Below are positions 9,273 to 19,790 of a stretch of DNA of 64,000 nt, in pieces. Source of the DNA: a virus; IMG/VR virus record IMGVR_UViG_3300037484_000374, positions 96,001 to 160,000 of that record, one strand, 5' to 3'. A program made the position numbers and the translations under genes. Numbering within the stretch: position 1 is the stretch's first letter; each line of letters begins with the position of its first letter. A model generated the notes under the pieces. It was not told the DNA's origin. It saw only the letters and a list, made by a program, of their open reading frames with translations, and did not search any database.

Positions 9273-10319
9273 ATGAGTAAATGGGTAGACGAAGAAAAGT
9301 ATAATGATTTTGCAGGGAAAAAGGAACAGGAGAAAGAAAAACAAGAGTCGGGGGAAGGTCAGCAAGGGTTTGCTAAAAAATTCAGACCATCTATGGGTTC
9401 AGCAGAGAAACCAAAAGAATACGAAATTCGTTTTCTTCCTGATACAGATGGTAGATTTTATGAAGAATATTTCTATCATGGATTCTATGTTGGTGAGTCA
9501 TTCAAATTCATCGGTTGTGAAAAAAATAAGGGTCTTGACAAATATTGCCCGTGGTGTGGAATCACTCAGATTCTATATCAGGGATCGGCCAATGACAAAA
9601 AGAAAGCCGGTGATTACAAACGTAAAAATCGATATGTTGGTAACGTTTATGTTATTGATGATCCACGGGATGCAACTATCGAGAACCCAGAATACAAGAA
9701 TTCAAAATCAGTGCGGCTCTATGAATTCCCAGCAACAGTGGAAACAAAACTCAAAAAAGAAGTAACAGATAATAAAAATGGTTACGGGTTGGCAGTGTTT
9801 GATCCTGAAAATGGATACAGTATGTTGCTTTCAATTGGAGCCAAGAAAGCAGATGCTAATAAAAAAGTATGGCCAGATTATGACCAGACCATGTTTGCTC
9901 GTAGACAATCATCCATTGCCGATGGTGCTGAACTCGAAGAGATTATGGCTCAGCGTTATTCTTTAGGTGATTTTATTGAAGCCTTGATGATTACTCCCGA
10001 TGCCCATCGTGAACTTCTTAAATCAGAAATGGTTTATGAAGATGTCGAGAGAGACTTTGAGTTGAAGTTGGGCGGTTTTAATAAACTGACTACCAAAGAC
10101 GAACCAGCAAAGGAACCAGCAAAGGCTTTTGATCCAAATCAGAATGTACCACCAGTAGAAAGTAAACCAGACATGGGTGATGATACTCCTACATATGGAG
10201 CCCCACCACCAAAAACACCCTATCCGATCCAATATGGTGATGATATGGTTGTTGATAGCACAGGGTCATCGGCTCTTAGCGAGGATGATGCGCTGTTGGC
10301 CAGCTTGAGAGATTTATAA
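9273..10319 (+). CDS. single-stranded DNA-binding protein (T4 gp32-like)
   Basis: EIRFLPD, YHGF...C...CPWC Zn site, RYVGNVYVIDDP, VFDPENG, acidic C-terminus. Confidence 0.88.
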   Translation: MSKWVDEEKYNDFAGKKEQEKEKQESGEGQQGFAKKFRPSMGSAEKPKEYEIRFLPDTDGRFYEEYFYHGFYVGESFKFIGCEKNKGLDKYCPWCGITQILYQGSANDKKKAGDYKRKNRYVGNVYVIDDPRDATIENPEYKNSKSVRLYEFPATVETKLKKEVTDNKNGYGLAVFDPENGYSMLLSIGAKKADANKKVWPDYDQTMFARRQSSIADGAELEEIMAQRYSLGDFIEALMITPDAHRELLKSEMVYEDVERDFELKLGGFNKLTTKDEPAKEPAKAFDPNQNVPPVESKPDMGDDTPTYGAPPPKTPYPIQYGDDMVVDSTGSSALSEDDALLASLRDL

Positions 10320-10377: not shown

Positions 10378-10413
10378 GGGGGGGGGATACATAGAAATAT
10401 GTTTCCCCCTTTT
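10378..10413 (+). terminator. intrinsic terminator after gp32
   Basis: G-run/ACATA-GAAA-TATGT/C-run hairpin plus T tract; related copy at 14243-14279. Confidence 0.75.
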
Positions 10414-10449
10414 ACATTGACAAACGATATAAAATATATAGGTGATTAA

Positions 10450-10794
10450 GTGAACAAGAAATCGTGTTTTGATTGTAAAAATGCTGTCGTGGTACAAGGA
10501 GATGCATCGGTTGGTATTGGTGGAATATGTATTGATAACTGCCACGCACAATTAACAGAAGACCAGATGGAAGCATGTGAAGACTGTGATTGGATAGAAT
10601 ATAAATGTCCAGCAAAATGTGGTCACTTTGAACATATTATGGTTGAAGTGTGTGCCGAGTGTAAAAAAGAAATGAATACCCCATTACATGAAGTAGAGTA
10701 TTATGGGGTTGAATATGTTGATATTCCGGTATGTTCGGTGGAATGTAAAATCAAGTTTGATGAGACAGTTGGAAAAAAAATTAAAGAATATTAA
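10450..10794 (+). CDS. cysteine-rich hypothetical protein
   Basis: 114-aa ORF behind a TTGACA promoter. Confidence 0.55.
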   Translation: MNKKSCFDCKNAVVVQGDASVGIGGICIDNCHAQLTEDQMEACEDCDWIEYKCPAKCGHFEHIMVEVCAECKKEMNTPLHEVEYYGVEYVDIPVCSVECKIKFDETVGKKIKEY

Positions 10795-10822
10795 AATAAT
10801 TTAGAAAAAATTTGAAAACTTA

Positions 10823-10830
10823 TATAAATA
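10823..10830 (+). promoter_or_regulatory. late promoter of tRNA operon 1 leader
   Basis: TATAAATA in GAAAACTTATATAAATA context shared with 14632. Confidence 0.75.
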
Positions 10831-10847
10831 CAAATAGAGAAACTATT

Positions 10848-10925
10848 ATGAAAAACACAAAAACGACCTCGACATCCAGTAAACCAAGTAACCCCAATCA
10901 TAGTGATTGGCCGGTGTACGTGTAG
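10848..10925 (+). CDS. leader peptide 1, MKNTKTTSTSSKPSNPNHSDWPVYV (putative attenuator peptide)
   Basis: 25-codon ORF between late promoter and terminator; stop codon lies in the antiterminator strand. Confidence 0.75.
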   Translation: MKNTKTTSTSSKPSNPNHSDWPVYV

Positions 10926-10988
10926 AATTCTCTAAAGTAATGTTGTAACCATAAAGGGGAGAATCTACAAAGGTTTTTCCCTTTTTTT
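10921..10988 (+). terminator. attenuator 1: antiterminator 10921-10933/10957-10968 versus terminator 10954-10988
   Basis: AAGGGGAGAATCT-ACAA-AGGTTTTTCCCTT + T run; TGTAGA(A)TTCTC pairs with GAGAATCTACA. Confidence 0.8.
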
Positions 10989-11001
10989 GTGGAAAAAATA
11001 T

Positions 11002-11076
11002 GGGGTGGTGGTTCAGTAGTAGAGCACAAGGTTGAAGTCCTTGGATAGCGGGGCGCGATTCTCCTCACCCCTGACC
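11002..11076 (+). tRNA. tRNA-Phe(GAA), atypical T-loop
   Basis: CAAGG-TTGAAGT-CCTTG anticodon arm, GGGGTGG/TCACCCC acceptor; T-loop CGCGATT. Confidence 0.75.
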
Positions 11077-11091
11077 AAAAATTGAATATAT

Positions 11092-11174
11092 AGATTGTAC
11101 CGCCATGGGGCAAACTGCTTTTGAACGGCATGGGTGGGTGAAACCACGGGGTTCGATTCCTCTACTTTCTGCCA
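11092..11174 (+). tRNA. tRNA-Ser(TGA), apparent 8/4 fold
   Basis: TGCT-TTTGAAC-GGCA arm, long variable arm, GGGG-TTCGATT-CCTC, G73-CCA. Confidence 0.75.
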
Positions 11175-11181
11175 AGAATAT

Positions 11182-11268
11182 AGTAGATTGACCGAGCGGC
11201 AAGGTATCTGGTTGCTAACCAGCAGTAAGGGTGACACCTCACAGGTTCGAATCCTGTATCTACTGCCA
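11182..11268 (+). tRNA. tRNA-Ser(GCT)
   Basis: AGTAGAT/ATCTACT, CTGG-TTGCTAA-CCAG, variable arm, GCCA. Confidence 0.9.
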
Positions 11269-11281
11269 GAAATAAATGTAT

Positions 11282-11355
11282 GGGGGTGTAACTTAGTGGC
11301 AAAGTAACTGGCTTTTAACCAGTAAACGGGGGTTCGATTCTCCTCACCCCCACCA
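11282..11355 (+). tRNA. tRNA-Lys(TTT)
   Basis: ACTGG-CTTTTAA-CCAGT, full cloverleaf, ACCA. Confidence 0.92.
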
Positions 11356-11426
11356 AAAATTGAATAGTAACACTAACTATACACGGTAATATTACCAATG
11401 TTACAATGCAAGGGGGGGGGGGTACC

Positions 11427-11645
11427 ATGAATAAGTTTTTTAGAAAACAGTTGGAAAAGTTGAAATCAGGTCGAGGTAAAAGTCTGACTTATAATAATAA
11501 ACATGGAAAGTTTAGAGTAAAATATTGTGATGGTGTAAAATCCAAACCAATGTTTTATGATATCGCAAAAAGATTCGCTGGCATATTCAATGGGAAAGTA
11601 TTTTACATTGAAGATGAGGATGAATATCAGCGGTATGCGTTATAA
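11427..11645 (+). CDS. hypothetical basic protein
   Basis: ATG after poly-G tract, between tRNAs. Confidence 0.5.
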   Translation: MNKFFRKQLEKLKSGRGKSLTYNNKHGKFRVKYCDGVKSKPMFYDIAKRFAGIFNGKVFYIEDEDEYQRYAL

Positions 11646-11658
11646 TTGAGAATGATAT

Positions 11659-11735
11659 ACTCCTATGGTGTTAATTGGTAAGCATGTGTGGCTGTTAACC
11701 ACAGGGCCAATGTTCGAGTCCTCGTAGGAGTGCCA
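11659..11735 (+). tRNA. tRNA-Asn(GTT), weakened T-stem
   Basis: TGTGG-CTGTTAA-CCACA, ACTCCTA/TAGGAGT, GCCA; two T-stem mismatches. Confidence 0.78.
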
Positions 11736-11743
11736 AAATTAAT

Positions 11744-11817
11744 GTATCTCTGGTGAAATGGTATCATGATTGGCTCCAACCCAATCGTTGTGGGTTCAAG
11801 TCCTACGAGGTACGCCA
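11744..11817 (+). tRNA. tRNA-Trp(CCA)
   Basis: ATTGG-CTCCAAC-CCAAT, GTATCTC/GAGGTAC, GCCA. Confidence 0.9.
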
Positions 11818-11829
11818 TTAAAAATATAC

Positions 11830-11903
11830 GCTAAGAGTGGTTCTGGGAACCGATTTCTCTTGTAAGGAAGTTTTTGGGGGTTCGACTCCTCCTCTTAGCT
11901 CCA
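11830..11903 (+). tRNA. tRNA-Thr(TGT), short D-loop
   Basis: GCTAAGA/TCTTAGC, loop CTTGTAA, D-arm GGTTC-TGG-GAACC, TCCA. Confidence 0.82.
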
Positions 11904-11972
11904 AGTTTACACACAACAAGTATTGTGGTATAATGATAGTAAATATAATAGGAGATGTAATGACAAGATTTT
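11903..11972 (+). repeat. 70-bp promoter-RBS-start module, identical inverted copy at 47968-48037
   Basis: TTTACA-N17-TATAAT, AGGAG, ATGACAAGATTTT; exact reverse complement at 47968-48037. Confidence 0.9.
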
Positions 11973-12421
11973 TCAAAAGCATTAAAAATTTAATCAGGTG
12001 GTTTCCAGTAATATGGAATGACAAAGATTGGGACAACGCTTATATCTATACGATATTACATAAGAAAATATCAAATATGGAAGATTTTTTCAGAACCGAT
12101 GCTATTATCAGTGAAGCAGACAGAGTTGCCGATGAGATCAACACCGTGGTTTTAGCTCTCCAAAGACTTGTCAAAGATGAGTATGAAGAAATAGCCTTTG
12201 AAGACCATGATAAGAAATGGGGTAAAATAGGAATGATAGAAGCACCATGGAAGATGCACAAGTTTAACTTCACCAGAAAAAATGTCACCACAGAAGAGGA
12301 TAAGAAAATAGAAAAGCAGGAAATGCTTGCTTGTTTTGATAGAGTAGAAGCATATAGACAGTGTGATATTGATCTTGTATGTGATACCATGAAAGAAAAA
12401 ATTCAGGAATGGTGGGATTGA
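11960..12421 (+). CDS. hypothetical phage protein
   Basis: MTRFFKSIKNLIRWFPVIWNDKDWD...EWWD; start after AGGAG. Confidence 0.7.
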   Translation: MTRFFKSIKNLIRWFPVIWNDKDWDNAYIYTILHKKISNMEDFFRTDAIISEADRVADEINTVVLALQRLVKDEYEEIAFEDHDKKWGKIGMIEAPWKMHKFNFTRKNVTTEEDKKIEKQEMLACFDRVEAYRQCDIDLVCDTMKEKIQEWWD

Positions 12422-12429
12422 AATAATAA

Positions 12430-12505
12430 CTGGGTGTAGCTGAGTTTGGTTTAGCACGGGCCTTGGGAGTCCGAGACGGAGGTTCAAATCCTCTCATCCA
12501 GACCA
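12430..12505 (+). tRNA. tRNA-Pro(TGG)
   Basis: CTGGGTG/CATCCAG, loop CTTGGGA, ACCA. Confidence 0.9.
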
Positions 12506-12517
12506 TAAATTAAAATT

Positions 12518-12727
12518 ATGAAAAAAGATGAATCATTAATACCAGAAGGTGCTTATTGTTACACAATAATAAAAACACCTTGCAAAGAAACAAATTGGTG
12601 CTTGAGAATAAAACCATGTCCTTATTGGAAATTAATTTATGATTTTCCAGAACAAATGAATGGATATTGTAAGTTCTTAAAAGAAGGTGATTGGACTCCA
12701 AAAGGTCTATCATTGTTATGTGAATAA
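12518..12727 (+). CDS. cysteine-rich hypothetical protein, possibly truncated
   Basis: IPEGAYCY...CPYW...GYC. Confidence 0.5.
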   Translation: MKKDESLIPEGAYCYTIIKTPCKETNWCLRIKPCPYWKLIYDFPEQMNGYCKFLKEGDWTPKGLSLLCE

Positions 12728-12745
12728 CCTTTGCGAGGTACGATA

Positions 12746-12919
12746 ATGAACTCCCTAAAAAAGTTAAAAATGAAAAAGGTCAAGAATGTCCTTTCCTCAA
12801 AAGAGGATGTGAATAAAGTGCGCACCTCGCTGGAGCAAAAAACCTCTCAAGCCTTTGATGCGTTTGCCAAGTCGAAGCAAAAAGACCAGGAAATGGCACA
12901 TTTGAAATATCTTGATTAA
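12746..12919 (+). CDS. small basic protein, GC-richer than flanks
   Basis: GAGG RBS, 57 aa. Confidence 0.5.
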   Translation: MNSLKKLKMKKVKNVLSSKEDVNKVRTSLEQKTSQAFDAFAKSKQKDQEMAHLKYLD

Positions 12920-12996
12920 AACTAACCTATTCTTGCTTATAAGCCCGGACATCTGAAATTAAGATTCTGGCTTTTTTTAATGCCATATTGAATGAT

Positions 12997-13047
12997 TGAG
13001 ACTCTGGCAAGTCACATAAGCGAGTTCGATTCTCGTCAACACCGCCA
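12997..13047 (+). pseudogene. 3' half of a tRNA (5' acceptor strand and D-arm missing)
   Basis: GCGAG-TTCGATT-CTCGT T-arm then CAACACC-G-CCA; no GGTGTTG upstream. Confidence 0.6.
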
Positions 13048-13349
13048 AGTTAAAAAAATATATGAATGATCTTATCAGAATAATACAAGAAAATCTTACA
13101 CATAGTCTACTAAAACCTGAATATAGAAAAATCAACGAAAATAGCCCAACGTATGGTCATTGTTATGCTGCCTCGGAATTTTTATGTAATTTAGAAGGAA
13201 AAGATTAAAGTTTCTTCCCCTATCATGGTAGAGATGAAAATTAGGTTGACATACCATAAACACTATGGTATAGTAGGTTATATAAGAATTTTAAATGGTC
13301 ATAAAGACCAAAAGGGGTCATAAAGACCAAAACTGTAAGGAGAAGATGT

Positions 13350-14204
13350 ATGAAAAATTTGTTAAGTGTATTGGTAGCATTGGTTGCATTTCTTGCTGTC
13401 AGTACAATCCCACAGGTATCTAGGGCATCAGATGACGTTACGATAATGTTTGAGATCGGGATCGGTATTGGTAAATCTGGAAAGGTTGCCAAGAAAGTTG
13501 ACGCTGATCCACGACTCTGTAAGAATCGTGACACTGGTCGGTTGATTTATTTTGGTGTTCGTGCAACATATGATGATGTTGAACTTCACCTTGCGCGTTG
13601 GCAGGGTGACGCTGACTGTTTGACATGTGAGCGTGACGCCTGGGCCTTGGGCCTTGGATATCAAATAACCAGTGATGATCATGGAACAATGGATTATGAC
13701 GATGTGTATACCACATGGACTCATGGACTTGCCTATACATGGGGTGAGGAAAAAAGATACGGGGGTGAGGAAAAAGAAAATACTAACTGGCGTTTACATG
13801 GTAACTTCCAGATTTTTAACCGCCTTGCTGTTGGGGTTCAGACAGAAGATGCAATGCTTGAAGTTGCCTTGAATCGTTATGGTTCATTTGATCCTAACCA
13901 CGGTGAAACATTCTTAACCGCTGGTCTTGGTCTTAACTTTTTGGAAGACACAACACATGTACCAATAGCCACACCTGAAAAAGAAATCGTTTACATCGAA
14001 GGGTCAGCGGGTAAAGACGGAACCGATGGTGAAGATGGTGAAGATGGTGAAGATGGTGAAGATGGTGAAGATGGTGAAGATGGTGAAGATGGTGAAGATG
14101 GTGAAGATGGTGAAGATGGTAACAAGGGTAATAATGGAAACGGTAACGGCTCAGAAGGTGCTTCCCCAGGTCAGGGTAATGGGGCCAACGATGATGAAAA
14201 TTAA
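13350..14204 (+). CDS. exported outer-membrane beta-barrel-like protein (PagL-like pattern) with collagen-like (GED)10 tail
   Basis: signal peptide, alternating beta strands, NFQIFNRLAVGV...PNHGETFL, Gly-X-Y repeat. Confidence 0.55.
   Translation: MKNLLSVLVALVAFLAVSTIPQVSRASDDVTIMFEIGIGIGKSGKVAKKVDADPRLCKNRDTGRLIYFGVRATYDDVELHLARWQGDADCLTCERDAWALGLGYQITSDDHGTMDYDDVYTTWTHGLAYTWGEEKRYGGEEKENTNWRLHGNFQIFNRLAVGVQTEDAMLEVALNRYGSFDPNHGETFLTAGLGLNFLEDTTHVPIATPEKEIVYIEGSAGKDGTDGEDGEDGEDGEDGEDGEDGEDGEDGEDGEDGNKGNNGNGNGSEGASPGQGNGANDDEN
14025..14120 (+). repeat. 9-bp tandem repeat GATGGTGAA x10.7
   Basis: perfect repeat encoding DGE. Confidence 0.95.
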
Positions 14205-14242
14205 TTTATAAAGTAAAATAGATACATAAGAAATCAAAAAAA

Positions 14243-14279
14243 AGGGGGGGGGGGCATAGAAATATGTTCCTCTTTTTTT
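14243..14279 (+). terminator. intrinsic terminator
   Basis: G-run/CATA-GAAA-TATG/TTCCTC + T tract. Confidence 0.75.
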
Positions 14280-14352
14280 GATTTAATCACTTGACTTTTT
14301 CTACAGATGTGATATAATACATTATAAGATAAATTCAGTTGAGGGATACACC

Positions 14353-14592
14353 ATGTTACATAAGAAAACAATGTTATTAAGAACCAAAGATAATACTACC
14401 ACTGTTAGAATAGGACTTTTCGGTAATAACTTCAACCCCGATGCTTGGTATCTCTTGAATAAAAGAAATGAGCCAGATGTGATTGTTAATACATCACCAG
14501 CAGGGGCCAGCAAGATCGTTCTCTCATACAAGACATTGGAAGGAAAGAGAGTCTATGATATCTATAAAGTTACATCAATAATAGATATTTGA
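14353..14592 (+). CDS. hypothetical protein
   Basis: behind TTGACT...TATAAT promoter and GAGG RBS. Confidence 0.55.
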   Translation: MLHKKTMLLRTKDNTTTVRIGLFGNNFNPDAWYLLNKRNEPDVIVNTSPAGASKIVLSYKTLEGKRVYDIYKVTSIIDI

Positions 14593-14631
14593 GAAAAAAT
14601 TAAAATAATTTGAGAAAAAATAGAAAACTTA

Positions 14632-14639
14632 TATAAATA
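14632..14639 (+). promoter_or_regulatory. late promoter of tRNA operon 2 leader
   Basis: TATAAATA followed by AGGAG. Confidence 0.75.
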
Positions 14640-14660
14640 GTAATAGGAGAATTAAATTCA

Positions 14661-14744
14661 ATGACACTCAGACAGACATATACTCTTTTAGAACAACGCA
14701 TACTTGTGATAGGTATTGTTGTGTATTGTGGAGAAATACCGTAA
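14661..14744 (+). CDS. leader peptide 2, MTLRQTYTLLEQRILVIGIVVYCGEIP (putative attenuator peptide)
   Basis: 27-codon ORF with AGGAG RBS; stop codon begins the antiterminator strand. Confidence 0.78.
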   Translation: MTLRQTYTLLEQRILVIGIVVYCGEIP

Positions 14745-14808
14745 GACTGGGGGATAAAATAACGATCACAGAACCCCTTGGTCTTAAAAAAGATTAGGGG
14801 GTTTTTTT
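14742..14808 (+). terminator. attenuator 2: antiterminator 14742-14753/14775-14786 versus terminator 14772-14808
   Basis: AACCCCTTGGTCTT-AAAA-AAGATTAGGGGGTT + T run; TAAGACTGGGGG pairs with CCCTTGGTCTTA. Confidence 0.82.
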
Positions 14809-14814
14809 ATTTGA

Positions 14815-14842
14815 TTGACACAGCTTAAAAATATGGTATAAT
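14815..14842 (+). promoter_or_regulatory. sigma70-type early promoter
   Basis: TTGACA-N16-TATAAT with TGG before -10. Confidence 0.7.
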
Positions 14843-14975
14843 AAAATATAGGTAAAAGATTAAACTTTATTTAACAGGCGAGTAGGATGTCAGTAACAAT
14901 CATAGTAGTAACAGTTGTTGTAGAAATAGCATTAGTATTGTTGTTTAAAGAGAAAAACTAGGTCTTTGTTCTATG

Positions 14976-15034
14976 TTGAGGTGTGTGGCTTGTAATCACA
15001 ATATATTGGGGCAGAGTATCCATCATCTCAACCA
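14976..15034 (+). pseudogene. D-armless tRNA-like element with TGT (Thr) anticodon loop
   Basis: TTGAGGTG/CATCTCAA-CCA, TGTGG-CTTGTAA-TCACA, degenerate T-arm. Confidence 0.5.
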
Positions 15035-15046
15035 AAGAAATAATGA

Positions 15047-15121
15047 AGGGGCATAACACAATGGTAGTGTACATGACTTTGAATCGTGATATGGTGGGTT
15101 CGATTCCCCCTGCCCCCGCCA
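15047..15121 (+). tRNA. tRNA-Gln(TTG)
   Basis: CATGA-CTTTGAA-TCGTG, unpaired 1:72, GCCA. Confidence 0.88.
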
Positions 15122-15160
15122 AAAATAAATGTGTATTTTTATTATAAATACTAATAATAT

Positions 15161-15237
15161 GGGAGAGTGGTGGAACTGGTATACATACTTCGCTTAGACC
15201 GAAGGTTTTAGGGGTTCGACTCCCCTCTCTCATACCA
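15161..15237 (+). tRNA. tRNA-Leu(TAG), short variable loop
   Basis: CTTCG-CTTAGAC-CGAAG, AGGGG-TTCGACT-CCCCT, ACCA. Confidence 0.82.
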
Positions 15238-15452
15238 GATTAATCATCGTGGAGATTAACCATGTGCATATTTAAATGTAGTTGTGGAAGCAGGAAAGTT
15301 AAGATAGAATCTTTTTGTAATTGTCATTATGTAATCTGTATTAATTGTAAAAATACTACAGAGAATTGTACGAGTCCAGAAATGGCAGTATTGAAATGGA
15401 ACCAAAAAATTGATAGTATAAGTCATAGTAAATAACCAAAAGGGAGATAGAT

Positions 15453-15842
15453 ATGAAGAAATTGTTTTTAGTATTGATAATATGTTTGAGTTTGTTGTTA
15501 CCGGTAGTTGCATCAGCAAACATGGAGTGTTTGGGTGAACCGCTCACGGATGGCGAAACCAATATAGTTAATATGGTTCACGAACTTCTTACAGCATACG
15601 GTGCTTATATAATACCACTTGCAAACGCAGTTAAACCGGAAGAGGTTTTGGCAATGACTCGACCCGATCTTCAAAGATTGGCAACCCAATTAACAGAAGA
15701 GGGTCTTTTACAAGTGGTTTCAGGTCAGATTGGTTATTACGAAGAGGGTGATGTTTGGATGTTCGTGATTGTCGAACCAACACTGGATAAGGAAGCGGCA
15801 TGTATTATCAGTGTAATGTTAAGAGAGAAGACAGCAAAATGA
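15453..15842 (+). CDS. exported hypothetical protein
   Basis: signal peptide MKKLFLVLIICLSLLLPVVASA. Confidence 0.65.
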   Translation: MKKLFLVLIICLSLLLPVVASANMECLGEPLTDGETNIVNMVHELLTAYGAYIIPLANAVKPEEVLAMTRPDLQRLATQLTEEGLLQVVSGQIGYYEEGDVWMFVIVEPTLDKEAACIISVMLREKTAK

Positions 15843-16234
15843 AAATTTTATTCAGAATATTGATTGTATTAATGTTTTTGTCAGTACCAATGAGCGCACA
15901 GGCAAAAAAAGAATGTACCAGTTGTGGAACGCTGGGTGTTACCGAGCAGATTACGGTAAATGATATTAACAAACAAGTCACTGAGTATTGTAGTGAAAAT
16001 ATGGGCAAGATGAAAACGTGGCCAGTACATAGGGCCATCAAAAAAGCCGAGAAGGGGATCAATTTGATCGTCACACGGTTTATCGACAAGGGGTACGTTG
16101 ATGGTATCACTGTCGAGTTTAAAGTCGTTAGCGATGAGCTATGGCCCGATAGTAAAAAAGTTTATGTAGAATTAACCATTGTTCCAAATAATAAGAAACC
16201 GTCAAGGTGTGTTATCACGGGAAGGTTACAATGA
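15839..16234 (+). CDS. exported hypothetical protein
   Basis: signal peptide MKILFRILIVLMFLSVPMSAQA; ATGA overlap. Confidence 0.65.
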   Translation: MKILFRILIVLMFLSVPMSAQAKKECTSCGTLGVTEQITVNDINKQVTEYCSENMGKMKTWPVHRAIKKAEKGINLIVTRFIDKGYVDGITVEFKVVSDELWPDSKKVYVELTIVPNNKKPSRCVITGRLQ

Positions 16235-16605
16235 TGAGAATTGTATATATACTCTTAGCACTGATGGTTTTTATGTCACCATCGTTTGAAAAACTTAGCG
16301 CATATTCTGGGATGAGTCAACAAACCAAGAACCAAGGAAGCAATACGAATGTTGTGGAGGTAAAAAAAGAAATTCGAGCATGGTGTGAATATTATTCAGA
16401 AAAAATACCATCAAGGTTAACGTTAATATTATTACAAAGTTCACTGGATGGTTATTGTAACTTTGCAGTTCGTGAGAGGATGGTATATTGGGTTGATAGT
16501 GTGGCATTTATTAAGAATAATGAGATTTGGGTAAAGACCATTATCATCCCTGTAAAGGGTGGAGAAAAAATAGAGTTTACGTTAAGACTCGTAACGAAGT
16601 GTTAA
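16231..16605 (+). CDS. exported hypothetical protein
   Basis: hydrophobic N-terminus; third of three similar-sized exported ORFs. Confidence 0.6.
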   Translation: MMRIVYILLALMVFMSPSFEKLSAYSGMSQQTKNQGSNTNVVEVKKEIRAWCEYYSEKIPSRLTLILLQSSLDGYCNFAVRERMVYWVDSVAFIKNNEIWVKTIIIPVKGGEKIEFTLRLVTKC

Positions 16606-16615
16606 TATAAAATAT

Positions 16616-16705
16616 GGAGAGTGCAAATAAGGCTGGATTGGTCTGGCGGTTGGCTGTAAACCAACCCCTGATAGACATGGGGTTCGAATCCTTCACTCCC
16701 CACCA
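16616..16705 (+). tRNA. tRNA-Tyr(GTA), apparent 8/4 fold
   Basis: GGTTGG-CTGTAAA-CCAACC, GGAGAGTG/CACTCCCC, 4-bp T-stem, ACCA. Confidence 0.78.
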
Positions 16706-17040
16706 AATAGGAACAAGTATGGATATTGAAAAATGTGAATGTGGAAGTAAGAATGTTATACCAGAACTTTTTTGCGGTAGATCATATATCTATTGTAAGG
16801 ATTGTGAAAAAACCACCGGCGAACATATATTACTCGATGAGGCCATAGGTGAATGGAATAAAATGTCCAGAGTGTGGTGATGAAGCAGTACAGGCATTAG
16901 TCAATGGAAGACCGGCCATGGTTTGTGAGAGTTGTATCAATGGAGTTATGACACTTACACAATGCCAATATTGTAATGAATATAGATACAAGAGACAACA
17001 AAAAGTTTGTGGCTGTAGGGAAACGATGAACGAATAATAC

Positions 17041-17421
17041 ATGTACCATCCAGACAATAGGTTTCTGGCAATGAGCTTACGAAACTCGTTTGATAGTCTC
17101 AACTCCTATATGGTACCCCAATTTAAAAAAGGATTCACAATGCCTATAAATTTGGAAATTGAAGATTATGAAAGTGTTTTAATTTTAGCAGATGATGAAA
17201 ATGGGAATTTAGTCTGGGAAGTATTGATGCCCGAAATTGATGAAAATGTAGACAGTGAAGGGGTTTCAATACCAACATTAATGTGCGCCGCTGTTGCAAC
17301 CAGAATGAAAGAAGATAAGGGGTTTGTTGATGATATGATAAACTGGTTTGATTGTTTCGTTTGTACTGAACCACCACCAGTTAAAGGTAGAATGAAAACA
17401 AGTTTGAGGAGAGTAAAATAA
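17041..17421 (+). CDS. hypothetical acidic protein (true start may be 17140)
   Basis: ORF; AAGGA precedes MPINLE. Confidence 0.55.
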   Translation: MYHPDNRFLAMSLRNSFDSLNSYMVPQFKKGFTMPINLEIEDYESVLILADDENGNLVWEVLMPEIDENVDSEGVSIPTLMCAAVATRMKEDKGFVDDMINWFDCFVCTEPPPVKGRMKTSLRRVK

Positions 17422-17427
17422 TTTTAT

Positions 17428-17502
17428 GCTCTGATAGTTTAACGGTAGAACGGACAACTTATAGTTGTTTAATGGCCGGTTCGACTCCACCTCAGAGCAC
17501 CA
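17428..17502 (+). tRNA. tRNA with TAT anticodon, Ile(UAU)
   Basis: GACAA-CTTATAG-TTGTT, GCTCTGA/TCAGAGC, ACCA; imperfect T-stem. Confidence 0.7.
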
Positions 17503-17624
17503 TTAAGGTTTACGGTATGATAAAAATATGTTTGAAATGTGATCAAAAAAAGGATATATCTGAATTTCATAAAAATTGCCATGCTGAATATCATCATTTG
17601 AAAAGATGTAAAAATTGAAAATAA

Positions 17625-17704
17625 GCGGGTATGATAAGCCAAGGGCATTGGTAAACTGGACACCAGCCAGTAAATAAGGGGTTCGACTCCCCCTTCCCGC
17701 TCCA
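17625..17704 (+). tRNA. tRNA-Gly(ACC), atypical anticodon loop
   Basis: GCGGG/CCCGC-T-CCA Gly-type acceptor, ACTGG-ACACCAG-CCAGT. Confidence 0.65.
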
Positions 17705-17716
17705 AAAGTTTTATAT

Positions 17717-17793
17717 AGTTCCGTAGCTTAATTGGCCAAGCATCTCTTTTACACGGAGAAGTCATAAGAGTTCGAGTCTCTTCGGAACCACCA
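17717..17793 (+). tRNA. tRNA-Val(TAC)
   Basis: TCTCT-TTTACAC-GGAGA, ACCA. Confidence 0.88.
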
Positions 17794-17803
17794 ATATTAA
17801 TAT

Positions 17804-17880
17804 AGCGGTGTAGCTCAGTGGTAGAGCCGTGGTCCTGATAAGGCACAGACTTAAAGTTCGATTCTTTTTCACCGCTACCA
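17804..17880 (+). tRNA. tRNA-Ile(GAT)
   Basis: AGCGGTG/CACCGCT, loop CTGATAA, ACCA. Confidence 0.82.
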
Positions 17881-17899
17881 TTAAATAAAGGATGTTAAT

Positions 17900-18172
17900 A
17901 TGGATGAATTTGTTAAAGTATTTTGTAGGGTTGTAAAGATGCATTGGTACACTTGGAAAGCAAAATATATTCTGGATTCTATTTTGGATGTATGTCGATG
18001 GATAATTTATATTGGTTTCCTTCCAAAGACATTAATTAACTGGACTGTTGGTTGTCATTTGGCAAACTCCAAAAGATTAAGGAAGGTTATTATAGAATCT
18101 GATTTTACAGACATCATAAAATTTGTAGATCGGGCTGATAGAGCCTATAGAAACCTTTACATCGAAGATTAA
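17900..18172 (+). CDS. hypothetical protein
   Basis: AAGGA RBS; resembles 18182-18445. Confidence 0.55.
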   Translation: MDEFVKVFCRVVKMHWYTWKAKYILDSILDVCRWIIYIGFLPKTLINWTVGCHLANSKRLRKVIIESDFTDIIKFVDRADRAYRNLYIED

Positions 18173-18181
18173 AGGAACAAA

Positions 18182-18445
18182 ATGAGTAAGCTAAAAATTG
18201 TTTTGAGGATAGTAAGATTGTACAGATGTACTTTTATAGGAAAGTATTACATACCGTTTTTAAATAAAATCATGGATTGTTTTGTGTTTCTTGGAATTAT
18301 CCACTACGGATTTCACAACCATATTGTTGATAAGATAAAGGAAAACACACAAAGAATAATTGAGATCGCCATAGAAGGTGGTAACCATGACCTTGCTGAT
18401 ATCGCTGATGATCAGAATAAAACAGCAGACGATTTATATATTTAA
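18182..18445 (+). CDS. hypothetical protein
   Basis: AAGGA RBS; possible paralog of 17900-18172. Confidence 0.55.
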   Translation: MSKLKIVLRIVRLYRCTFIGKYYIPFLNKIMDCFVFLGIIHYGFHNHIVDKIKENTQRIIEIAIEGGNHDLADIADDQNKTADDLYI

Positions 18446-18451
18446 ATGTGA

Positions 18452-18524
18452 CGCAAAGTAGACCGGTGTCTGGTGAAGTCTCATAAGCTCTCACGCTGGG
18501 GTTCAATTCCCCACTTTGCATCCA
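18452..18524 (+). tRNA. tRNA with CAT anticodon, initiator-like C1:A72 mismatch
   Basis: CGCAAAG/CTTTGCA, loop CTCATAA, TGGGG-TTCAATT-CCCCA, TCCA. Confidence 0.72.
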
Positions 18525-18535
18525 AATAATTAAAT

Positions 18536-18609
18536 GGGGATATAGTTTAGTGGCAGAACAGCTGTCTTTCTAACAGCCAGCAGGGGTTCGATTCCCCTTA
18601 TCCCTACCA
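18536..18609 (+). tRNA. tRNA with TTC anticodon (Glu), U at position 37
   Basis: GCTGT-CTTTCTA-ACAGC, GGGGATA/TATCCCT, ACCA; identity uncertain. Confidence 0.7.
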
Positions 18610-18680
18610 AAAAAATTTATTTTGTATTTTAAATATTTTTCCATAAAATCCATATAAATACCAATACAAGGAGAAATAAT

Positions 18681-19790
18681 ATGGATGCATATTGGATAAA
18701 CCCACAAGGAAAAATATTACAATTGACAGGGGGGACACATATAAAGATAGTTTTTGATAATCCAAATAAGTTTGGATTATCAAAACAATCAATTCAAAAA
18801 ATATATGATAAATATAACGAAAATTATGGAATAGAAGGAAAGGCGAGAGATGAAATTATCACAAAGATCATCCAACGAGGCTATGTTCGTATCAGAGAAT
18901 ACAAGAACAGGTGGAGCGTTCAGGTATGGAAGATCAATAATAAAGTAAATGATACATTATGGGTATGGGCAAAGACCGTATTACCCAAAGCAAGTGATAA
19001 ATTTGCTGATATAGACATCACAGAAATTGGTGGAAGGAAAGGTTTAATGAGAACATCTTTATCAAAATTGGCAAGTGGTGGAAGTATTTCAGAAGAAGAA
19101 AAAGAATTGGCAGAACGGCATGTTCGTTTTGTAGACTCGATTGATGATTTTGATGATTATGTTCCAGAGACAGAAGAAGAAATATCAGAAAAATATATAG
19201 TCAATGAATCATCATTGTCAAGGCTATGGAAACACAATACAGAACACGATTGTGGGGCTTTAACGGCATGGCGTAGAGCAGAGGGTTGTGGTGAGGGTAG
19301 ATTATATACACATAAGGAAAACCAACAACGTAATAAATCACTCAGAGCAAAATTAATGGCCATGGGCTATTCTGTAACTGTGATATCTGGAAAATACCCA
19401 GAGGGTGGTAAAACATCCAAGGAAGATAGTTATTTTGTCGTTGACATGGATGACGATGGACAGCTTGAAAAGGATTTACTGAAACTCGGAGAAATCTTTG
19501 AGCAGGATTCCATATTGTTTGTTCCAAAGGGTGCTGTTGAAAGAAAACAGAAAGCACTTTTAATAGGAACAAATCATTGTCCTAATGGATTCCCTGGGTA
19601 TGGTAAAAAACTTGAATTTGAAAAGGGCAAATTTGGTGTTAATAGCCCTATATATACATCATATGTTAATGGCCGACCATTTATATTTGAAACTCTTGAG
19701 ATGACAACACTCCACAGGCAAGGTAATGGTATGGGGGTCTGGGCAACATATCTCATAGCAAAAAAAGGTTGGCAAGACATAGACGTATAA
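18681..19790 (+). CDS. late phage protein of unknown function, two domains
   Basis: TATAAATA at 18653, AGGAG RBS, internal KYIVNE-SSLSRL boundary. Confidence 0.7.
   Translation: MDAYWINPQGKILQLTGGTHIKIVFDNPNKFGLSKQSIQKIYDKYNENYGIEGKARDEIITKIIQRGYVRIREYKNRWSVQVWKINNKVNDTLWVWAKTVLPKASDKFADIDITEIGGRKGLMRTSLSKLASGGSISEEEKELAERHVRFVDSIDDFDDYVPETEEEISEKYIVNESSLSRLWKHNTEHDCGALTAWRRAEGCGEGRLYTHKENQQRNKSLRAKLMAMGYSVTVISGKYPEGGKTSKEDSYFVVDMDDDGQLEKDLLKLGEIFEQDSILFVPKGAVERKQKALLIGTNHCPNGFPGYGKKLEFEKGKFGVNSPIYTSYVNGRPFIFETLEMTTLHRQGNGMGVWATYLIAKKGWQDIDV

Follow-up and report, generated by a model that had tools for sequence, protein, structure and literature searches.

A candidate leader-peptide attenuator in front of the tRNA genes of an uncultured T4-like phage

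Introduction

Transcription attenuation by leader peptides is represented in enterobacteria by the trpL, hisL, pheL, leuL, thrL and ilvL attenuators. In these systems, a short leader ORF is combined with an intrinsic terminator and with an antiterminator that excludes it; a ribosome that has reached the stop codon of the leader covers the 5' strand of the antiterminator, and the control codons are placed where stalling releases that strand. The genes under control code for biosynthetic enzymes and the leaders carry tandem runs of a single codon, ilvL being a multivalent example in which several amino acids are sensed. Leader-peptide attenuation of a gene of the translation apparatus is found in Escherichia coli, where the Phe-rich pheM leader controls pheST, coding for a tRNA synthetase. 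Another example of a link between tRNA status and the terminator/antiterminator choice upstream of translation-related genes is the T-box riboswitch, in which uncharged tRNA is recognized directly, by a specifier codon and the conserved T-box sequence, and translation plays no part. The nearest functional analogue that we have found in the literature is the uORF attenuator of whiB7 (wblC) in Actinobacteria. [quoted passage not shown] Its output is a transcription factor with a stress and resistance regulon.

The element presented here precedes tRNA genes of a phage and resembles the enterobacterial attenuators in all the features by which these are recognized in sequence, namely an ORF, a terminator, an exclusive antiterminator, masking at the stop codon and control codons (at the amino-acid level). 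Like ilvL, it would sense several amino acids. Unlike the enterobacterial leaders, those of this family contain no tandem runs of a single codon and sample 6 to 20 amino acids matching the tRNA array; the proposed output is tRNAs instead of biosynthetic enzymes, and the element is preceded by a late-promoter motif of the T4 type and often has another promoter, of the sigma-70 type, after it. With respect to pheST, tRNA genes take the place of the synthetase and a mixed leader that of the Phe-rich one, and with respect to whiB7 the output would be tRNAs, closing a direct feedback loop. The presence of an ORF separates the element from T-boxes; a T-box riboswitch was considered and rejected, since the only matches in the window at the Rfam gathering score were tRNAs and no T-box was found at E<=1 in 10700-18800. 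In the usual view, the tRNA genes of phages are simply expressed, and either fix a mismatch in codon usage or replace tRNAs destroyed during infection. Full-text literature searches found no published description of leader-peptide attenuation of tRNA genes.

The source phage and its tRNA region

The window, i.e., the whole stretch of 64,000 nucleotides that was analysed, comprises positions 96,001 to 160,000 of IMG/VR record IMGVR_UViG_3300037484_000374, a virus record of 171 kb with an estimated completeness of 71%. A single-strand DNA-binding protein of the gp32 type is encoded at window positions 9273-10319, and its nearest cultured relatives, with 25-30% identity, are those of T4-like cyanophages. 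Because an anaerobic ribonucleotide reductase and a Gp23-family major capsid protein are encoded as well, the source is, on its gene content, a distant T4-like phage, and an uncultured one. Near-identical strains are present in sediment and soil metagenomes, no RNA run is among the public runs listed as containing the sequence, and searches of the phage collection and of IMG/VR, by DNA or by the neighbouring protein of 114 amino acids, returned no close relatives. Every tRNA gene of the phage lies within 11002-18609 of the window. This region also holds an ORF with collagen repeats inside tRNA unit 1 (13350-14204), and an ORF with an S-adenosylmethionine-lyase-like domain comes directly after tRNA-Glu (18681-19790). 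Runs of about 11 G are found at 11413-11423 and 14245-14255, each just 5' of an ORF start, and the length of the former varies by one base among strains.

Architecture of the first element

Element 1 (window 10823-10988) comprises a late-promoter motif, a leader ORF, an antiterminator strand and an intrinsic terminator, as follows (window coordinates):

10776 to 10830, plus strand: AT-rich block whose 3' end is TATAAATA (10823-10830); a second copy is 86% identical
10848 to 10925, plus strand: leader ORF of 25 codons plus TAG (ATG at 10848, TAG at 10923-10925)
10920 to 10934, plus strand: 5' strand of the antiterminator, including the stop codon; pairs with 10957-10970
10953 to 10988, plus strand: intrinsic terminator, hairpin 10953-10984 and T tract 10982-10988, -15.5 kcal/mol

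The paralogous copy of the AT-rich block lies at 14593-14639. The octamer at the end of the block, TATAAATA, fits the T4 consensus and is taken here to be a T4-type late-promoter motif, a role assigned on what is established for T4 itself. Of its 55 sites in this genome, 24 are located 5-80 nt 5' of an ORF start, where 8% would be expected (P = 2e-12); the major-capsid gene has no exact copy directly upstream. The predicted 5' untranslated region of the leader is only about 12 nt long and its Shine-Dalgarno sequence is a weak AGAGA (10836-10840). The coordinates and the codon list of the leader are exactly those of a preliminary description made from the sequence, which had also proposed an attenuator at this place.

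The antiterminator duplex is formed by 10920-10934 with 10957-10970, that is, with the 5' arm and the loop of the terminator. The pairing of a strand containing the stop codon with the terminator, as the preliminary description had claimed, was thus recovered with a computed energy of -14.1 kcal/mol; of the other 26-nt windows within 3 kb, about 99% pair less strongly (P = 0.011). In that description the terminator had been drawn as a 13-bp stem at 10954-10983; the hairpin and the T tract stand, and the computed stem is one pair longer, with arms 10953-10966 and 10971-10984 (14 pairs including G-U). Likewise, the spacing of 13 nt to tRNA-Phe is right when counted from the T tract, and becomes 17 nt when counted from the stem. 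Antiterminator and terminator are mutually exclusive and of comparable stability (-14.1 versus -15.5 kcal/mol). A search of the entire 171-kb record for the late-promoter motif in combination with a terminator and with an antiterminator that overlaps the stop codon of a short ORF gave two sites only, and these head the two tRNA blocks. A scan without the promoter motif (ORF, antiterminator and terminator) was discarded, as it gives many chance matches and is useful only when the motif is included. Contigs from four DNA runs covering 10400-12600 showed zero substitutions within element 1, hence no natural covariation.

The folding of the RNA was computed with and without parts of the transcript. 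When the 3' arm of the terminator is left out, the minimum-energy fold of element 1 is the antiterminator, and the same omission yields the antiterminator in the minimum-energy fold of seven of nine elements of the family. In the minimum-energy fold of the full transcript of element 1, the terminator forms and the stop region pairs with the 5' untranslated region. Equilibrium folding with ribosome masks gave a terminator probability of 0.78-0.95 at every mask position in element 1, and thermodynamic switching under masks was seen in two relatives only. Masked folding had been proposed in the preliminary description as a check, and in the equilibrium fold of element 1 it shows no switch. Classical attenuators act kinetically, and an equilibrium preference for the terminator is usual in them too. 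Because attenuation is kinetic and the nascent fold forms the antiterminator, the equilibrium result was not counted against an attenuator.

The first tRNA block and the codons of the leader

The genes behind the terminator of element 1 are the following:

11002 to 11072, plus strand: tRNA-Phe (GAA), first gene 3' of the terminator; Rfam only, 35.4 bits
11083 to 11174, plus strand: degenerate tRNA-Ser(TGA)-like sequence; ARAGORN at relaxed threshold only
11182 to 12505, plus strand: tRNA block 1, with small ORFs between the genes
11182 to 11268, plus strand: tRNA-Ser(GCT), block 1
11282 to 11355, plus strand: tRNA-Lys(TTT), block 1
11659 to 11735, plus strand: tRNA-Asn(GTT), block 1
11744 to 11817, plus strand: tRNA-Trp(CCA), block 1
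11830 to 11903, plus strand: tRNA-Thr(TGT), block 1
12430 to 12505, plus strand: tRNA-Pro(TGG), block 1

In the window, tRNA-Phe is one A shorter than in three other metagenome strains (the A behind 11052), and ARAGORN calls the gene once this base is inserted. An extra T behind 11238, in tRNA-Ser, is found in other metagenome strains. The window copies at both places may represent an assembly error or a real defect. Two Ser tRNAs had been counted in the preliminary description: Ser(GCT) is confirmed, and Ser(TGA) is doubtful because it is called by ARAGORN only, at the relaxed threshold, with no Rfam match at E<=1 in 11083-11174.

Nineteen of the 24 leader residues after Met have a tRNA in the downstream block, against a background of 36%. 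Among the 40,580 gene windows of this genome just 18 reach that level, and among its 1,379 small ORFs just 2 do. The same figure had been given earlier for codons; it is correct by amino acid, and strict wobble reduces the readable codons to 16 of 24. The match of synonymous codons to the tRNAs is not above what the codon usage of the genome predicts. The reservations expressed at that time also hold, including the weak ribosome-binding site: the leader has no Phe codon, though tRNA-Phe is the first gene, and its His and Asp codons, like those for Val and Tyr, have no tRNA in block 1.

A second element in the same genome

The other site with the full combination is of like design and stands in front of the second tRNA block:

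14632 to 14808, plus strand: second attenuator, with TATAAATA at 14632-14639
14661 to 14744, plus strand: leader 2 ORF, 27 codons
14741 to 14754, plus strand: antiterminator 2, including the TAA stop; -17.6 kcal/mol
14770 to 14805, plus strand: terminator 2, strong
14815 to 14842, plus strand: perfect sigma-70-type promoter 3' of terminator 2
15047 to 18609, plus strand: tRNA block 2 (Gln, Leu, Ile, Val, Ile, Glu)

The residues of the two leaders are divided according to the block that each of them precedes. In leader 1, 19 residues are covered by block 1 and 2 by block 2; in leader 2, 4 are covered by block 1 and 15 of 26 by block 2 (Fisher P = 1.4e-5). At the level of strict wobble, none of the four Leu codons of leader 2 is read by Leu(TAG). 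A strongly hydrophobic ORF of 24 codons (14887-14961) is located between the sigma-70-type promoter and tRNA-Gln, and degenerate tRNA-like sequences, called by relaxed ARAGORN only, occur within block 2 (Gly ACC-like, 17628-17703; Met CAT-like, 18452-18524).

The element in related phages

Relatives were located through gp32 homologues with about 43-56% identity to the gp32 of the window. The resulting family has 11 elements, the two of this genome and nine in related metagenomic phages, whose leader ORFs are (contig coordinates):

L031, 2424 to 2534: leader ORF
L032, 2907 to 3026: leader ORF
L003, 14098 to 14160: leader ORF
L012, 11820 to 11906: leader ORF
L034, 3465 to 3554: leader ORF
L041, 2359 to 2463: leader ORF
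L084, 13454 to 13528: leader ORF
L013, 7043 to 7126: leader ORF
L089, 11787 to 11873: leader ORF

Eight of the 11 leaders have TATAAATA upstream and two more have TATAAGTA. Some relatives have a stronger Shine-Dalgarno sequence than element 1, for example GAGGAG or AGGAG. In all 11 elements the open frame of 19-38 codons from ATG into the antiterminator is kept despite AT-rich sequence, at least two of the three bases of the stop codon pair with the 5' arm of the terminator, and 25-34 nt separate the stop codon from the terminator. The stems of the elements are unrelated in sequence, so that the architecture is conserved as a geometry while the sequences that build it have changed. Compared with local windows, seven elements show strong antiterminator complementarity, two show a moderate one and the remaining two a weak one (P ~0.15 in the weak ones), with a Fisher-combined P of 8e-11 for the 11 elements and of 6e-10 without element 1. 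The observation is real and lies far beyond chance. The attenuator proposed in the preliminary description gains support from this recurrence, as leader ORF, stop-overlapping antiterminator, terminator and codon match are found again in ten further elements. At least 6 of the 11 elements have a sigma-70-type promoter 3' of the terminator; an attenuator at this position would therefore govern only part of the tRNA transcription, which suggests, from the order of the sites, unconditional early and conditional late expression of the tRNAs. In two other contigs with tRNA arrays, L005 (G001) and L060, the element was not detectable.

A cultured phage with a similar unit is Synechococcus phage B3 (MN695334.1, 45588-45730; L092:689-830). 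In this phage, gp50, annotated as hypothetical, is an ORF of 30 codons in which Trp (three codons), Asp (five codons), Lys and Asn are abundant; the terminator (-14.7 kcal/mol) is matched by a competing pairing of -14.5 kcal/mol, and the unit heads an array whose first tRNAs are Lys, Trp and Asp.

Several other features were seen in the contigs of the relatives. Their tRNA arrays include a GOLLD RNA (177 bits) and tmRNA genes (122 and 66 bits) (L032:8322-8751; L031:17356-17713; L084:19740-20090). An ORF of 33 codons rich in Lys, Gly, Arg and Ser stands behind TATAAATA between tRNA-Met and the attenuator leader of L013 (L013:6907-7000). Just 5' of the L003 attenuator, a sigma-70-type promoter is followed by about 400 nt without a called gene (L003:13570-14000), a region with no Rfam family at gathering score. 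Finally, the gp32 gene at L087:2134-3105 yields its database protein only when TGA is translated as Trp, a hint that the group includes a recoded phage.

Leader composition and tRNA repertoire

The tRNA sets used for comparison were obtained with ARAGORN and Rfam, and some are truncated by contig ends. In the seven elements with a partial set, the phage's own tRNAs cover 58-79% of the leader residues against a background of 31-44% (binomial P from 2e-5 to 6e-3). Permuting the tRNA sets among the leaders gave P = 3e-5 for nine elements; for the seven with a partial set, the result was 5 of 5040 arrangements, and when the comparison was reduced to six lineage representatives, phage B3 among them, no other arrangement out of 720 scored as high as the real one. 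Leader observations are not fully independent because several leaders are homologous; the codon-to-tRNA correspondence holds across independent lineages. The frequency of an amino acid in the leaders is higher when its tRNA is present for 18 of the 20 amino acids, and amino acids with a tRNA in the array appear in the leader in 74 of 79 cases, versus 46 of 101 for those without one (Fisher P = 1e-12). Phages with large arrays behind one element have leaders of broad composition: with 27 tRNAs, the leader has 36 residues and 20 different amino acids (P = 0.0012), and with 21 tRNAs it has 39 residues and 19 different amino acids (P = 0.03). The match also depends on position: where a stall would free the antiterminator, 77 of 99 residues match, versus 7 of 20 for the last four codons, which are dictated by the antiterminator sequence (P = 3e-4).

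Proposed mechanism and alternative explanations

In our view, the element is likely to attenuate transcription by means of a leader peptide and its translating ribosome, and so to control the read-through that reaches the phage tRNA genes from the late promoter as well as from upstream transcripts. The phage would then, probably, transcribe extra tRNA only while ribosomes read the leader codons slowly. For promoter use, leader translation, timing and regulatory outcome we infer the following course. The polymerase would start a few bases past TATAAATA and transcribe the leader of 25 codons. Under smooth translation, the ribosome would be at the TAG while the polymerase makes the terminator; its footprint would cover 10920-10934, the hairpin would form and transcription would stop at about 10988. 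Scarcity of the matching charged tRNAs would instead stall the ribosome before it gets there, on a Lys, Asn, Thr, Ser, Pro or Trp codon, leaving 10920-10934 free to pair with 10957-10970 as the latter emerges. The terminator would not form, and transcription would continue through the genes for tRNA-Phe, Ser, Lys, Asn, Trp, Thr and Pro. The outcome would be a negative feedback loop replenishing those tRNAs late in infection.

Three other explanations were weighed. In the first, which we regard as improbable, the element is a boundary followed by a small late gene: the terminator would insulate the tRNA unit from upstream late transcription, the ORF would code for a micro-protein or be incidental, and complementarity and composition match would be by-products. 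A unit boundary does predict the sigma-70-type promoters found after at least 6 of the 11 terminators, homologous leaders have some similarity at the peptide level, and the terminator always forms in the equilibrium folds of element 1 (two relatives switch). However, the stop codon lies within the antiterminator strand in all 11 elements with a different sequence each time, the composition of the leader shifts with the tRNA set, including the case of both leaders of one genome, codon matching is restricted to the stall-competent zone, and length and sequence of the leaders are otherwise poorly conserved.

A general sensor of translation status, to which we give equally little credence, would respond whenever ribosomes slow down, be it through host shut-off, ribosome-targeting toxins or amino-acid starvation, rather than to the supply of particular tRNAs, and the codon content would be the ordinary codon bias of the phage. 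It would agree with the lack of extra enrichment at the level of synonymous codons and with the leaders of tRNA-rich phages, which contain nearly all amino acids; in addition, the whiB7 uORF attenuator reacts to many translation defects (PMC10274678). Against it stand the partition of the two leaders of this genome by block and the set-specific matching across phages, neither of which is explained by overall codon bias.

Very improbable, finally, is that the terminated late transcript of about 150 nt is itself the product, a trans-acting small RNA with an untranslated ORF, since the compact unit from promoter to terminator, the weak ribosome-binding site of element 1 and the precedent of attenuator-derived sRNAs such as rnTrpL would suit it, but the open frame kept in 11 of 11 elements, the good Shine-Dalgarno sequences of several relatives and the lack of an Rfam family match do not, and such a product would in any case be compatible with attenuation.

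Significance

The attenuator reading may be taken one step further. The leader could audit exactly those tRNAs that the phage is able to replace, so that the removal of tRNA-Lys, Asn, Thr and others, by host anticodon nucleases or by tRNA decay during infection, would stall ribosomes in the leader and let the late promoter read into the replacement genes. We put this forward tentatively, as a possible but rather doubtful extension. If true, it would represent a self-adjusting counter-defence circuit evolving in step with the tRNA repertoire of each phage. More generally, leader codons that mirror the tRNA array would constitute a direct feedback sensor of decoding capacity, for whose study the gp50 unit of phage B3 offers a laboratory system. 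Attenuation of this kind would widen the logic of the trp and his systems from amino-acid supply to tRNA supply, and would offer a predictor, readable from sequence, of the tRNAs that matter to a given phage.
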